Below are positions 18,291 through 39,144 of a stretch of 64,000 bases of DNA, one piece after another. The DNA is from a virus. A program made the position numbers and the translations under genes. Each line of letters opens with the position of its first letter. Within the stretch, counting starts at the first letter, position 1. The notes under the pieces are model-generated. The model was not told the origin of the DNA. It did no database searches and saw only the letters and a program-made list of their open reading frames with translations. Where the stretch lies: the IMG/VR virus record IMGVR_UViG_3300023184_000033, positions 64,001-128,000 of that record, one strand, 5' to 3'.

Positions 18291-18959
18291 TTAGTTATTC
18301 TCTGGAAACAAACAATCCTGAATGAACATCTTTACTGTATTCGCATCTAGTCCTAAACTTTCCATAACCCTCGGTGTATGTGGATTCTGTTTTTGATTTT
18401 GACAATAGTAGTTCTGTTGTTCTCTGATACTACCATGATATGAAAGTGGTACATGTGTGGTACCAACATGCCAAAGATAGTAATCTGTAGTTTCATTAGC
18501 CAATGAAATTAATGTTTCTAGTTCTTTTTCGTCCTGTATATTACCTGCAGCAACCATAGACGATGAAAATATATTTTTGGCCCAATCTGGTAAATTTCTA
18601 GGCTTAGACCACTCAAAATCTTTAACACGATTCTGAAACCACTTTGACATAAAATGTTCACTATTCATACTGAAATCGTGAAAGGCACCAGTGATTTTAT
18701 TTGGTCCCGCAATTAAGTCCAAACCAAAAATTGGTGACGGGTCATTATAATGTGGAAATATACACAGATGCATCATATACAATTTTTTTGTATCACGTGC
18801 ATCTATAATATCCAAGTGTGCTCTACGAAAATTATCGGATGAATACACATAGTTTGGCCAATCAAAAGAATGTCCCTCATCAACCACAACAGAACCTTCT
18901 TTGATTTTGTTATGTACAGACTCCGATAGTTCCACCAAACGATTAAAGATGGTACTCAT
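18291..18959 (-). CDS. pcyX: Ferredoxin-dependent bilin reductase, PcyX-like
   Basis: FRRAHLD, MMHLCIFP, PIFGLD, AFHDFS, R.LPDWAK.IFS, QNYYC.NQKQNPHT and LFP; paired with a heme oxygenase. Subfamily assignment is by motif recall. Confidence 0.85.
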   Translation of the reverse strand: MSTIFNRLVELSESVHNKIKEGSVVVDEGHSFDWPNYVYSSDNFRRAHLDIIDARDTKKLYMMHLCIFPHYNDPSPIFGLDLIAGPNKITGAFHDFSMNSEHFMSKWFQNRVKDFEWSKPRNLPDWAKNIFSSSMVAAGNIQDEKELETLISLANETTDYYLWHVGTTHVPLSYHGSIREQQNYYCQNQKQNPHTPRVMESLGLDANTVKMFIQDCLFPENN

Positions 18960-19467
18960 GTTCTAGTTCACCAAATAGTCTGATGACAAAATCGAAACAT
19001 TTGTTTGCTTCGGTACCCAGGTTCTCTGTTAACATTGGTCGAATCTTATCAATCATCTCTTTACGATTTTCGAAATCATACATTCTACCACTTGAAGGTG
19101 CCACTTTTTTAATCATCTGGCCACCATACATATCACCAAAGTGTCTGACATAAATGTGTGCCAAAAAATTAATTGGTTCTGAAGTAACATAATTCATATA
19201 ATCGATTGTAGAATTGTGTGGTACAAAATCAACTTCTGCCAATTCATCCAAGTCTTCTTTCATTTTATCGGCCCGCCACAGTTCTGGCATATCAGAGAGT
19301 ATACCTTGTTCCTGAGCTTTTTCTTCTAGTGTTCTATAACATAGATACTGGTTATACAGATATTCTGCATACATTCTTTTTGTTATTTTACCATTCAAAA
19401 GAAATTCTACAAATTTTGTTTTTTCTGCCGCTTCATGTTTGTCTGCAATTTGTTCACGCAATGTCAT
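18943..19467 (-). CDS. hemO: Heme oxygenase
   Basis: Proximal His in LREQ...HEAAE; distal helix HIYVRHFGDMYGGQMI; EANKCFDF...LF.EL. Confidence 0.92.
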   Translation of the reverse strand: MTLREQIADKHEAAEKTKFVEFLLNGKITKRMYAEYLYNQYLCYRTLEEKAQEQGILSDMPELWRADKMKEDLDELAEVDFVPHNSTIDYMNYVTSEPINFLAHIYVRHFGDMYGGQMIKKVAPSSGRMYDFENRKEMIDKIRPMLTENLGTEANKCFDFVIRLFGELEHEYHL

Positions 19468-19477
19468 AATTTTTATC

Positions 19478-36437: not shown

Positions 36438-36447
36438 AAATTACATT

Positions 36448-39144
36448 TTACAGTTTTTTCTTTACTTCGTCAAGCTCTGCCTTCAATTCTTTGATTGCTT
36501 CAACAAGAAGTGGCACCAACTTATCATATCTTACAGTCAAGTACTCTTTATCTAGAGGAGCTGGAACCACAACTTCAGGCAGAATTTTTTGTACATCTTG
36601 TGCAGAAAGACCAACGTCACGCTCATTAAGTTTAGCTTCATAACCCAATTCTTTAGCGAGTTCATTTGGTTCATAAATGAATCCAGTCAAAGACAACACT
36701 TTTTCGAGTGCATTTTCAATTAGACCAATACGGTTCTTTAATCTATCGTCAGAATAACCAGAGGTGATATTGTTTGTAGCACGAATTTCACCAGCTGTAC
36801 CTGATGCAGCTGTACCAACACCTAAACTACTGAATTGTACGTTGTCGTATGTATTTACGTTTTGGTTATAGCTTCCTGGAGGACCAGCTGGTCCTGGAGC
36901 TCCGGCCGATCCAGGAGATCCTGTTGGGCCTTGAACTGGTCCAGCAGAATAGTTTGTTGCAGTAGTTGTAATATATAAAATGCCACCACTAACATATGCA
37001 TTGGTAACACTAACACCTGTGGCTCCAACAGGCCCGGTAACTCCTGTGGTTCCTGTGGGTCCTGTAACACCAGTGGCTCCGACAGGACCAAGGATACTTC
37101 CTGACACAGCAACAACAACTGCATCGCTTCGTGTTAATTGTAGTTGTGTTCCAACAACAGCACCAGAAGTTACATAAGGTCCTGTAACACCGGTAACCCC
37201 AGTAACTCCTGTGGCTCCCGTGACACCTGTTAAACCTGTGGGTCCTGTAGCGCCTTGTGGAATTGTGAAGTTAAATACAGCAGCACCAACTGTTCCAGTA
37301 TTAGTTATTGCTGCTAAACTTCCTGCAGCACCAGTCGATACCGTTCCTAGTGAAACTGTGCCTGTTGCGCCAGTAACGCCAGTAGCACCTTTAACTGTTC
37401 CCGCATTAAAAGTGTAGGTGTTAGAGTATGTAATTTGTAAATCAGCACCAACAACTGTCGCAGATGTTAAGAATAAACCAGTTGCACCGGTTGCACCAAC
37501 TTGACCAGAAACAGTTACGGAATTTGCAACAGCAATAATTCTACCTTTAGAATCAACTGTAATGATAGGTACAGAAGAACTATTACCATATGTCTTTGCC
37601 GTCAAACCTACTTGGTCAGGAAGACCAATCGCAACAATACCTGTGTTTGCGTTTGCAGTTAAATCGCCAGTATTTGCGTAAACTTTTGTTCCTGGTGGAA
37701 TTGAAACTGTAGTATTAGATACTGCTAGAACTCGACCAAACTTGTCAACAGTAATTGCAGGAATGTTTGATTCATCACCATATGTTTTTGATGTTACACC
37801 AGTTGTTTCTAATCCAAAATCAATTATTTTTGTTGTATTATTGGCCAGAATTGCAATACCATTTGCAACGCTTGTGGTAATATTCAACCCGCCATTGTAA
37901 GCATTTGCAGAAACATTAATTGTATTAGCAGTAATTGAACTATACGCATTTTTACTTAATACGAAACTTTGTAAATAAGTATTAGCAGCATTTGTATATG
38001 ATTGTGAATAAACATTTGCCGAATATACAGCTGCCGATGTGGCCACGTTTGAAGTACTATTTAAATTGCTAGAATTATTTGAAAATTCATCAGTATGAAT
38101 TCTATAATAATTTCCATTAGTTACATCATTTAATTGCCACTGTAAAGCTGGTTCGTTCCAACTAATTGCTGCATTAGCATAAGAACCACCACCACGATAT
38201 ACACTATAGTAAGATGTTATACCATTAATATTACCTTGATTTAATTGATACGTATTTGATGAGTTGACTGTTGTACCGATTAGAATGAAGTTCGAATTAA
38301 CGGTTAAGTTGTTAACTGAAACACCATTGAAGAAAGCGTTTGCGCCAGAACCACCAAGTGTTGATCCAAGATTGATAACTGGCGTATTGATGACCGTGTT
38401 TGCAGTAATTCTATCAGATATAACATTACCACTCATCAAGTAGTTGTTAGCATACACAGTATTTGCATATGAGATTGTTGCAAAACTTTTAGGTGCTGAG
38501 AGGAATGTATTAGATGATACAGAATCGGAAATTAACTGGTTCTGCAATGTTAAGTTTGTTCCATAACCACTTTGAGTATATGTGAAGTTATTGGAAATTA
38601 TTGTTGCACCAGAAATGACTACAGTATTTGAAATTGTTGTGGCACCATTAACAGTTAGTGAACCAACAATTGTTGCAGTACCATTTGTTGAAAAGTTTCC
38701 ATTAATTTTACCAGTTCCCGTAACAGTAAGATTACCACTAACTGTTTCATTTCCTGTCGTAATAATATTGCCGCCAACTGTGACATTATTTGAAACTGCA
38801 AGACCTGTACCAGAACCCATTGCAAGAATAGGACCACTGATGTTCGCTTGGCCTGATGCAACTAGACTGAGTGTGGTGTTCGTGAAATAAACTTGACCAT
38901 CGACACGGAGGTTGTTTTGGACATATGCGGATGAACCTAGACCAATGACTTGTAATTGTCCACCAAGAATGGCATTGTTGGCAACTTGTAAACCTAGAGA
39001 ATTATCATTGAGAAATAATGTTCCGGTAGATTTTGTGTAGTTGTTTGCGGCCAACGAATTGTTTTCTTGCACCAAAGCATTCGTGGTAACCAACCAGTCG
39101 CCGAATGTATTTGCATATCCTAGAATAGAAACTGTATTTGCCAT
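36448..39144 (-). CDS. Tail fibre with collagen-like Gly-X-Y segments and a C-terminal intramolecular chaperone (peptidase S74-like)
   Basis: GATGPTGLTGVTG runs; YSDDRLK cleavage motif, GLSAQDVQKILPEVV and YDKLVPLLVEAIKEL. Confidence 0.88.
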   Translation of the reverse strand: MANTVSILGYANTFGDWLVTTNALVQENNSLAANNYTKSTGTLFLNDNSLGLQVANNAILGGQLQVIGLGSSAYVQNNLRVDGQVYFTNTTLSLVASGQANISGPILAMGSGTGLAVSNNVTVGGNIITTGNETVSGNLTVTGTGKINGNFSTNGTATIVGSLTVNGATTISNTVVISGATIISNNFTYTQSGYGTNLTLQNQLISDSVSSNTFLSAPKSFATISYANTVYANNYLMSGNVISDRITANTVINTPVINLGSTLGGSGANAFFNGVSVNNLTVNSNFILIGTTVNSSNTYQLNQGNINGITSYYSVYRGGGSYANAAISWNEPALQWQLNDVTNGNYYRIHTDEFSNNSSNLNSTSNVATSAAVYSANVYSQSYTNAANTYLQSFVLSKNAYSSITANTINVSANAYNGGLNITTSVANGIAILANNTTKIIDFGLETTGVTSKTYGDESNIPAITVDKFGRVLAVSNTTVSIPPGTKVYANTGDLTANANTGIVAIGLPDQVGLTAKTYGNSSSVPIITVDSKGRIIAVANSVTVSGQVGATGATGLFLTSATVVGADLQITYSNTYTFNAGTVKGATGVTGATGTVSLGTVSTGAAGSLAAITNTGTVGAAVFNFTIPQGATGPTGLTGVTGATGVTGVTGVTGPYVTSGAVVGTQLQLTRSDAVVVAVSGSILGPVGATGVTGPTGTTGVTGPVGATGVSVTNAYVSGGILYITTTATNYSAGPVQGPTGSPGSAGAPGPAGPPGSYNQNVNTYDNVQFSSLGVGTAASGTAGEIRATNNITSGYSDDRLKNRIGLIENALEKVLSLTGFIYEPNELAKELGYEAKLNERDVGLSAQDVQKILPEVVVPAPLDKEYLTVRYDKLVPLLVEAIKELKAELDEVKKKL
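36870..37510 (-). repeat. Collagen-like Gly-X-Thr coding repeats
   Basis: Five interrupted G-X-Y blocks in the translation, mostly with Thr at the Y position. Confidence 0.85.

Follow-up and report, generated by a model that had tools for sequence, protein, structure and literature searches.

In Escherichia coli, the genes of the heptosyltransferases TibC and Aah stand beside adhesin genes whose products these enzymes heptosylate. In Pseudomonas, a carbamoyltransferase of the NodU family acts on the heptose of the lipopolysaccharide (LPS) core. Mycobacteriophages encode glycosyltransferases that modify their own structural proteins, according to the part of PMC12801897 that relates this work (Freeman et al. 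2023). The locus described here holds a GT9-like, heptosyltransferase-like gene and a NodU/CmcH-family carbamoyltransferase gene downstream of genes for cysteine-rich, fibre-like proteins, and we propose that this cassette may place carbamoyl-heptose on those proteins. It was studied in a window of 64,000 nucleotides, the whole stretch of DNA that was analysed, which comprises bases 64001-128000 of the 163.8-kb IMG/VR virus record IMGVR_UViG_3300023184_000033, judged to be 98% complete.

The cassette lies in 21 kb (18291-39144 of the window) in which every gene is on the minus strand, between the gene of the neck protein gp13 and that of a giant VrlC/DUF4815 baseplate protein (Table 1). For pelagimyophages and cyanomyophages, the available portion of one report describes the VrlC-to-neck interval as a hypervariable, non-syntenic "host recognition cluster" of fibres, glycosyltransferases and auxiliary metabolic genes, and it collectively assigns the glycosyltransferases to modification of the host O-chain (Zaragoza-Solas et al. 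2020, PMC7029224). A carbamoyltransferase and "LPS genes" have been listed as sporadic cyanophage genes of unknown role, and some such genes co-occur in P-SSM2, S-SM2 and S-SSM7 (Sullivan et al. 2010, PMC3037559). The 21 kb is a hypervariable host recognition cluster of this kind, as it is a VrlC-to-neck island with the same three classes of genes and its content varies in related loci. In it, late-expressed fibre genes are intermixed with three enzyme modules that are evolutionarily independent. Because such islands are described as rich in glycosyltransferases and auxiliary metabolic genes as well as hypervariable (PMC7029224, same portion), enzymes among the fibre genes are not in themselves unusual. 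The phage is an uncultured T4-like myophage, and its host is probably a heterotrophic proteobacterium because psbA was not found in the phage genome, the portal protein is at most 52.6% identical to cyanomyophage portals and gp13 shares 43-46% identity with gp13 of T4-like phages of Stenotrophomonas, Caulobacter and Sinorhizobium and of the OM43 phage Melnitz. Cultured relatives share only about 45-53% identity with the window phage in gp13 and portal, and a megablast search of the whole stretch against cultured phages gave no matches.

A preliminary description of the window, made from the sequence alone, had noted six modifying enzymes among fibre genes of unusual content and had read them as a single system that decorates the virion. 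Pfam, PHROG and NCBIfam scans, from which the gene inventory was drawn, confirmed the layout. All six enzymes are present as described, beside two Cys-rich paralogs and a fibre with Gly-X-Thr collagen repeats, and the scans recognised no other non-structural gene in the stretch. IMG/VR loci were anchored on the carbamoyltransferase (n = 8), the GT4 glycosyltransferase (n = 80), the bilin reductase (n = 64) and the GT9-like gene (n = 80 of at least 585 matches in IMG/VR). They were annotated with the window proteins, a hidden Markov model (HMM) of the Cys-rich family and heptose-pathway queries; individual loci are cited below by number (L). GT4 was found in none of the 79 loci anchored on the GT9-like gene and in none of the 64 anchored on the bilin reductase PcyX. 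Therefore, the six enzymes form three independent modules, and a single six-enzyme system is not supported.

Co-occurrence of enzymes and fibres in related genomes, which the preliminary description had named as its check, was strong for only one of these modules. A Cys-rich family member was found by HMM within 5 kb upstream of the GT9-like/carbamoyltransferase pair, on the same strand, in 53 of 58 loci, and L195 and L229 were added by composition. No Cys-rich match was obtained in 132 control loci, which lack the GT9-like gene and come from phages of the same kinds (1.58 Mb in total). These controls were used as the background because the Cys-rich proteins are too divergent for a direct IMG/VR census. 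An IMG/VR scan with a single Cys-rich protein retrieved only its near-identical contig, and tblastn with the window protein missed the paralogs of S-SSM7, S-CAM1 and L003-L009, which were found only by composition and HMM. The link was weak for GT4 and its neighbouring 2-oxoglutarate (2OG)-Fe(II) oxygenase, with 11 of the 80 GT4 loci having a collagen-like open reading frame no more than 1.5 kb away from GT4. It failed for heme oxygenase (HemO) and PcyX, which have the 348-residue fibre as their upstream neighbour only in about 5 close relatives among the 64 loci. What stands of the earlier claim, that the enzymes decorate the phage's own fibres and are not unrelated metabolic genes, is the leading reading for the GT9-like/carbamoyltransferase pair; it does not extend to HemO-PcyX, a tetrapyrrole cassette whose neighbours vary.

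The pair itself is tightly linked. The two genes stand within 3 kb of each other in all 66 loci with enough sequence, and the fetched loci hold 74 distinct GT9-like sequences. The conserved order is a long fibre with CBM5/12 repeats, often two proteins of 106 and 110 residues, one to three Cys/Gly-rich paralogs, an acidic protein of about 210-235 residues, the GT9-like enzyme and the carbamoyltransferase; a homologue of the long fibre was present upstream of the cassette in 50 of 79 loci. This order is kept in three cyanomyophage genera, namely in P-SSM2 (PSSM2_301-308), S-SSM7 (SSSM7_113-121) and S-CAM1. In IMG/VR loci it is found again, at 37-67% identity, amid changing flanking genes. When one genome from each of 185,579 prokaryote species was scanned for the GT9-like gene, only 13 matches were obtained, all on contigs of metagenome-assembled genomes that carry the phage cassette. 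These contigs (L240-L252), which are labelled Flavobacterium, Methanobacteriota, Actinomycetota, Neomarinimicrobiota, Woesearchaeota and others, are probably mis-binned phage DNA. Because the matches are so few, inconsistent in taxonomy and always accompanied by the phage cassette, the GT9-like subfamily appears to be phage-specific. Limited literature searching found no description of the cassette as a unit, and the available portion of PMC7029224 describes none with Cys-rich, GT9-like, carbamoyltransferase and heptose genes.

Variants of the cassette were also seen, among them L003, L009, L246 and L247. In some, a 287-residue protein with the N-terminus MARLFVLGCSFTNYAWPTWAD, which is SGNH/GDSL-like by eye, is encoded between the GT9-like gene and that of the carbamoyltransferase (L003:9119-9982, L009:9122-9988). 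In others, a GT9-like copy stands on either side of the carbamoyltransferase, or the carbamoyltransferase itself is present in two to three copies. A second setting in which a GT9-like enzyme abuts a tail gene is provided by 78-kb Vibrio phages, namely K481 and about 30 relatives: a distant homologue (28% identity) lies directly upstream of the gene for a 1643-residue tail protein, with no carbamoyltransferase (L156:5875-11666).

The GT9-like protein was identified through its predicted structure. The AlphaFold2 model, with a mean predicted local distance difference test (pLDDT) score of 80, has the GT-B fold in its GT9 topology. In Foldseek, the best matches are all GT9 enzymes, namely WaaF (1psw, 3.6e-10), WaaC (2gt1, 4.9e-9), TibC (4rap, 1e-8) and a Veillonella GT9 (3tov), with E-values ranging to 2.6e-8 and template modelling (TM) scores of about 0.5. 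The Pfam family PF01075 (GT9) scored 19.6 bits against a cut-off of 22 and matched residues 200-261 only, and a profile search of PDB sequences with the alignment of this protein (A2) gave nothing useful. Since the Pfam score is below the cut-off, the protein is described on the strength of its model as GT9-fold and heptosyltransferase-like, not as a verified member of the GT9 family. The carbamoyltransferase has a Kae1-like N-terminal and a YrdC-like C-terminal domain, both above their Pfam cut-offs, as in NodU, CmcH and TobZ. It belongs to this family but is not NodU itself, since it misses the NodU equivalog cut-off (140 versus 1000 bits). The GT9-like enzyme would use a nucleotide-heptose donor, and the carbamoyltransferase would O-carbamoylate the heptose.

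Genes for making such a donor accompany the pair in many relatives. In P-SSM2, S-SSM7 and S-CAM1, the pair is followed by genes annotated as phosphoheptose isomerase (GmhA), heptose kinase/adenylyltransferase (RfaE-like) and ADP-heptose epimerase, and at least two heptose-pathway-like genes were found in 30 of the 50 IMG/VR loci having at least 8 kb downstream. In the window phage, none of these genes is next to the pair. Homologues of the epimerase, a cupin, the kinase and the adenylyltransferase are located at C1:51928-54709 of the genome, about 9-12 kb before the window start and 30 kb from the enzyme pair, and no SIS/GmhA isomerase gene was found in this genome. A second cytidylyltransferase-like gene is present at 1286-1705 of the window.

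The Cys-rich proteins resemble a known receptor-binding fibre. The model of the 403-residue paralog (mean pLDDT 50, core about 70-89) has a TNF-like plus glycine-rich domain fold. It matches the Pam3 fibre gp24 (7ypx_A) at Z 11.8 over 189 residues with 19% identity (VIA-align), the Bxb1 tail tip (9d93_Qa; Z 10.4) and the glycine-rich domain of ALK (Z 8.5-9.2), and the next match is at Z 3.8. As for the GT9-like protein, only the fold search was informative; searching PDB sequences with a profile of the Cys-rich alignment (A1) gave nothing useful. The glycine-rich domain family PF21722 matched 7 of the 25 aligned family members (best E 4e-11), with no match to the 403-residue window protein at E of 1 or below, and a literature search on PF21722 returned plant papers only. 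[quoted passage not shown] The predicted N-terminal helices of the Cys-rich model and the conserved 212-residue neighbour fit this plan. In P-SSM2, S-SSM7, S-CAM1 and many IMG/VR loci, homologues of the 212-residue protein occupy this position too, and the protein has a sub-threshold ESM Atlas lead (0.83) to tail assembly chaperones. The likeness to Pam3 gp24/gp25 (PDB 7ypx) thus consists of the fold, the N-terminal helix and a small adjacent non-fibre protein that is possibly a chaperone. In contrast, window-type proteins contain 7-13% Cys, come as two to three paralogs after a distinct long fibre and show linkage to sugar-modifying enzymes, and Pam3 gp24 is described without these features (PMC9608196). 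In the window, the gene of the 381-residue paralog starts 11 nucleotides after that of the 1183-residue long fibre.

The upstream signals of the locus are mixed. In the window phage and P-SSM2, the fibre genes carry late-type motifs (ATAAATA) and the enzyme pair a sigma-70-like promoter; similar sigma-70-like sites are found upstream of the P-SSM2 and L108 homologues. The number of sigma-70-like sites in the region is not above the shuffled expectation (71 versus 78). In L093, L095 and L100, the late-type TATAAATA precedes the enzyme pair instead. Promoter type was considered as a means to discriminate between a virion and a host target and was rejected, since the upstream signals in relatives are sigma-70-like, late-type or unclear. 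A literature search for the gene-level expression timing of P-SSM2 gave nothing usable.

We estimate a probability of about 45% that the cassette attaches carbamoyl-heptose to the adjacent Cys-rich fibre proteins. The phage would make or borrow nucleotide-activated heptose, and the GT9-like enzyme would move the heptose, in the cytoplasm, onto Ser or Thr residues of the adjacent fibre proteins. The carbamoyltransferase would then O-carbamoylate the fibre-bound heptose, and the resulting virion would bear chemically modified receptor-binding fibres. Fibre proteins are favoured as the acceptor because of the TibC/TibA and Aah/AIDA-I precedent, because the subfamily was never found away from fibre genes and because the LPS of marine Synechococcus contains neither heptose nor 3-deoxy-D-manno-oct-2-ulosonic acid (Kdo) (PMC4515613), so that the usual acceptor of an LPS heptosyltransferase is missing in the hosts of cyanophages that bear the cassette together with a heptose pathway of their own. 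More tentatively, marine and lake T4-like phages, including P-SSM2, S-SSM7 and S-CAM1, may have a dedicated pathway that makes nucleotide-heptose, fixes it to their own Cys-rich fibres and carbamoylates it.

The TibC/TibA and Aah/AIDA-I systems of E. coli (PDB 4rap, 4rb4) share with the cassette a GT9-fold gene beside an adhesin-type gene, and TibC uses ADP-heptose. They differ from it in that the sequence identity is about 10%, the putative substrates of the phage enzyme are TNF-like plus glycine-rich fibres and not autotransporter beta-helices, and the known systems have no carbamoyltransferase. The mycobacteriophage glycosyltransferases are said to act on capsid and tail-tube proteins and to add hexoses; heptose, carbamoyl groups and fibre targets are reportedly not among the findings.

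Several observations weigh against fibre modification. The linkage has exceptions: in L091 the pair is inverted and no Cys-rich gene is seen, L233 has no Cys-rich gene, and in L164 the Cys-rich genes are 7 kb downstream. The GT9 fold matches WaaC and WaaF as well as TibC and, thus, does not single out an acceptor, and the 403-residue model is of low overall confidence. The evidence for a modified virion protein is indirect, and the published virion proteomes are those of S-SM1, S-PM2 and Syn9, not P-SSM2, S-SSM7 or S-CAM1 (PMC3037559). Genome authors have read these genes as LPS or host-surface genes (PMC3037559; PMC7029224, in the portion available; PMC12801897). Also, a sigma-70-like promoter on the pair, with late-type motifs on the fibre genes, fits a host-directed early function just as well. 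The exceptional L091 locus (271-3003; IMGVR_UViG_3300032282_004277) encodes gp13, gp14 and gp15 that are 92-96% identical to those of the window. Its carbamoyltransferase and GT9-like genes are divergent (57% and 37% identity), inverted and directly abut the short fibre gene, as if the cassette had recently been swapped in a phage that is otherwise near-identical.

Another possible explanation is that the GT9-like enzyme, the carbamoyltransferase and the heptose genes remodel the host envelope by placing carbamoyl-heptose on LPS or on a different glycan of the surface. Masking of the receptor that the linked fibres bind would lead to superinfection exclusion and prevent progeny from sticking to debris, and the binding and masking genes would form one host-range unit. 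Most GT9 enzymes are LPS core heptosyltransferases, and the best matches of the model are WaaF and WaaC. A NodU-family carbamoyltransferase gene in an LPS core context is discussed for the Pseudomonas core oligosaccharide in the available part of PMC8005017, and the published interpretation of the phage genes is host O-chain or LPS modification (PMC7029224, in part; PMC3037559). The sigma-70-like promoter before the pair in the window phage, P-SSM2 and L108 would also agree with an action on the host, and the probable proteobacterial host may have a heptose-containing core. The likeness to the inner-core enzymes WaaC and WaaF and to Pseudomonas heptose O-carbamoylation extends to the GT9 fold, to a NodU-type carbamoyltransferase with heptose chemistry and to the ADP-heptose genes of P-SSM2, S-SSM7 and S-CAM1. 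However, the window enzyme differs from WaaC and WaaF in being below the Pfam GT9 cut-off, phage-only and amid fibre genes, and the canonical acceptor is missing in marine Synechococcus, whose LPS lacks heptose and Kdo (PMC4515613). The late-type TATAAATA before the pair in L093, L095 and L100 does not suit an early host-directed role, and no cellular LPS-cluster relatives of the enzyme subfamily were found at detectable similarity. To our knowledge, known phages do not normally carry their surface-conversion genes in the midst of fibre genes. We consider envelope remodelling less likely than fibre modification but regard it as the main competitor.

The association could also be without functional meaning, with unrelated auxiliary genes gathered in a recombination-prone island and synteny that reflects the inheritance of one block. 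Hypervariability and many auxiliary metabolic genes characterise the island (PMC7029224, in part), HemO-PcyX and GT4 clearly behave in this way, and the pair of L091 seems to have been swapped and inverted in a near-identical phage. This explanation is nevertheless improbable for the GT9-like/carbamoyltransferase pair. The order of Cys-rich, chaperone-like, GT9-like and carbamoyltransferase genes is kept at 37-67% identity across cyanophage genera and probable proteobacterial phages, the Cys-rich gene is absent from every control locus, and the GT9-like subfamily was never seen outside the cassette context. The proposal that all six enzymes form one decoration system, with each pair serving a neighbouring fibre, draws on the layout of the window and on the order of collagen, GT4, 2OG oxygenase and tail fibre genes that recurs in ACG-2014f, L010, L015 and L021. 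It is very unlikely given the independence of the pairs (GT4 in 0/79 and 0/64 loci), the variable and mostly non-fibre neighbours of HemO-PcyX, the known small-molecule activity of those enzymes (PMC11480375) and the non-structural contexts of GT4 in 37 of 80 loci. Hypermodification of phage DNA by the GT9-like/carbamoyltransferase pair, such as the addition of a glycosyl or carbamoyl group to a hydroxymethyl base, stands only a very slim chance of being correct. An early-type promoter before the pair would suit this, but the pair is strictly embedded in fibre clusters and linked to the heptose pathway, and its structural matches are heptosyltransferases, not DNA glycosyltransferases.

The "LPS genes" of cyanophages and pelagiphages have been catalogued since 2005-2010 without a demonstrated function and are routinely assigned to host-surface or DNA modification. 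The tie of the enzymes and the heptose pathway to one class of receptor-binding fibre, which extends to at least 55 of the 58 sampled loci and to three genera of cultured cyanophages, yields a hypothesis that is testable in culture. If fibre modification is true, it would be the first protein heptosylation system outside the bacterial autotransporter adhesins and the first case of glycosylated tail fibres in this very abundant phage group, with a sugar absent from the cyanobacterial host LPS. Host-range prediction from fibre sequence alone would then be incomplete for some of Earth's most abundant phages. If the envelope is modified instead, lytic phages would own a receptor-masking system that is inherited with the receptor-binding genes. 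The behaviour of HemO-PcyX and GT4 corrects the tempting reading that every enzyme in a fibre island serves the fibres.

Table 1. Features of the fibre island and its boundaries, in window coordinates
Feature	Position	Strand	Basis or remark
gp13 neck protein, lower cluster boundary	17491-18261	-	phrog_211, E 1e-41
PcyX/PcyA-like ferredoxin-dependent bilin reductase	18291-18959	-	PF05996, 62 bits
Heme oxygenase (HemO)	18943-19467	-	PF01126, 71 bits; 17-nucleotide overlap with reductase
Short fibre paralog, 348 residues	19478-20524	-	Shares N-terminal CBM5/12 repeat and last ~150 residues (38% identity) with 1183-residue fibre
NodU/CmcH-family O-carbamoyltransferase	20585-22402	-	PF16861, 200 bits; PF02543, 96 bits; phrog_1601, E 4e-168
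Predicted GT9-fold heptosyltransferase-like enzyme (phrog_8954)	22406-23473	-	AlphaFold2 model and Foldseek
Sigma-70-like promoter, TTGACT-17-TATAAT with TGn, before GT9-like gene	23505-23533	-	Best match in 20-kb region, 11/12 positions
Cys/Gly-rich protein, 403 residues, 9.7% Cys; putative TNF-like plus glycine-rich fibre or adhesin, Pam3-gp24-like	23549-24760	-	Alignment A1, model matches
Conserved acidic protein, 212 residues, no Cys; candidate fibre assembly chaperone	24779-25417	-	TATAAATA 23 nucleotides upstream
Second Cys/Gly-rich paralog, 381 residues, 8.1% Cys	25456-26601	-	37% identical to 403-residue paralog
Tail fibre, 1183 residues, CBM5/12 repeats; heads the cassette	26613-30164	-	phrog_9851, E 1e-265; PF02839 in 4 stretches
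Further fibre or baseplate-associated genes of 264, 227, 170 (coiled coil), 546, 112 and 113 residues	30210-34597	-	Weak PHROG tail matches; 113-residue protein: phrog_1084/phrog_3304
GT4 glycosyltransferase (phrog_3408)	34627-35760	-	PF00534, 58 bits
P4H-type 2OG-Fe(II) oxygenase	35853-36437	-	PF13640, 59.5 bits
Fibre, 898 residues, Gly-X-Thr collagen repeats, C-terminal S74 intramolecular chaperone	36448-39144	-	PF13884, 38 bits; collagen match below cut-off; sequence reading
Giant VrlC/DUF4815 baseplate protein, 2616 residues, upper cluster boundary	39383-47233	-	PF16075, 211 bits; phrog_358

The HemO-PcyX pair at the gp13 end of the island is a cassette of a known type. The phage hemO-pcyX cassette has been biochemically characterised, and the PcyX-type catalytic residue Asp55 sets phycoerythrobilin, not phycocyanobilin, as the product; what phages of heterotrophs gain from the cassette is still under debate (PMC11480375). 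In the window, HemO and a PcyA/X-clade reductase are likewise encoded by adjacent, overlapping genes next to gp13 in a T4-like phage, and the pair differs in nothing essential from the described one, including that of the pelagiphage Mosig, whose reductase is the closest cultured relative (47% identity). HemO adjoins PcyX in all 64 loci. Apart from the few loci with the 348-residue fibre, the neighbours are unknown genes, 2OG oxygenases, epimerases or a carbamoyltransferase. Attachment of the bilin to a fibre as an adduct was considered and rejected, since these neighbourhoods speak against it. HemO-PcyX is an auxiliary tetrapyrrole metabolism cassette in a recurrent slot by gp13, with no functional tie to the fibres. 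Its expression seems to depend on the late-type promoter that precedes the 348-residue fibre gene, to judge from an ATAAATA motif 27 nucleotides before that gene and gaps of 10 nucleotides between this gene and HemO and of -17 nucleotides between HemO and the reductase. The 348-residue protein is, by its shared repeat and C-terminal region, a cut-down paralog of the 1183-residue fibre.

Two further arrangements of this cassette were observed. In Mosig (L239, 39650-44735), the order is 2OG oxygenase, ferrochelatase, denV, three more 2OG-Fe(II) oxygenases, HemO, reductase and gp13; the ferrochelatase, HemO and reductase make up a group of tetrapyrrole genes where the fibre island ends. In L226, L227, L234 and L235 (e.g. 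L234:10192-15367), HemO-PcyX stands within a heptose-pathway gene set just before gp13, with the epimerase and kinase on one side and a cupin, the adenylyltransferase and a second carbamoyltransferase-like gene on the other. This position could be a hot spot for insertions, or the two modules could be linked in a way not yet explained.

The third module, GT4 and the 2OG-Fe(II) oxygenase, is a loosely linked pair that may modify the Gly-X-Thr collagen fibre in some T4-like lineages. The oxygenase is the single match of its kind in the whole genome. The order of oxygenase, GT4 and collagen fibre recurs in the closest relatives (L010, L015 and L021), the Synechococcus phage (cyanophage) ACG-2014f has a collagen protein, GT4, a 2OG oxygenase and a tail fibre, and in S-CBWM1 a tail fibre is followed by GT4. 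The arrangement could be likened to the maturation of collagen by the Mimivirus L230-like prolyl-hydroxylase and glycosyltransferase, in that the enzymes are beside the collagen gene in the window, L010, L015, L021 and ACG-2014f, but only 11 of the 80 loci overall show a collagen-like gene there. An oxygenase like that of the window adjoins GT4 in 4 of 80 loci at the blastp threshold used, which divergent oxygenases may escape, and any fibre-like window gene is common to only 10 GT4 loci. In 37 of the 80 loci, GT4 relatives of 58-71% identity lie among dCMP-deaminase-like, MazG-like, methyltransferase and terminase genes. The GT4 family thus serves in very dissimilar genomic surroundings, and as a whole it does not demand a role at collagen fibres. 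Among L010-L089, for example in L047 (7546-9998) and L075 (10591-12186), a GT4 of about 60% identity is found between dCMP-deaminase-like and MazG-like genes and a large terminase gene, in what is apparently a different type of phage.

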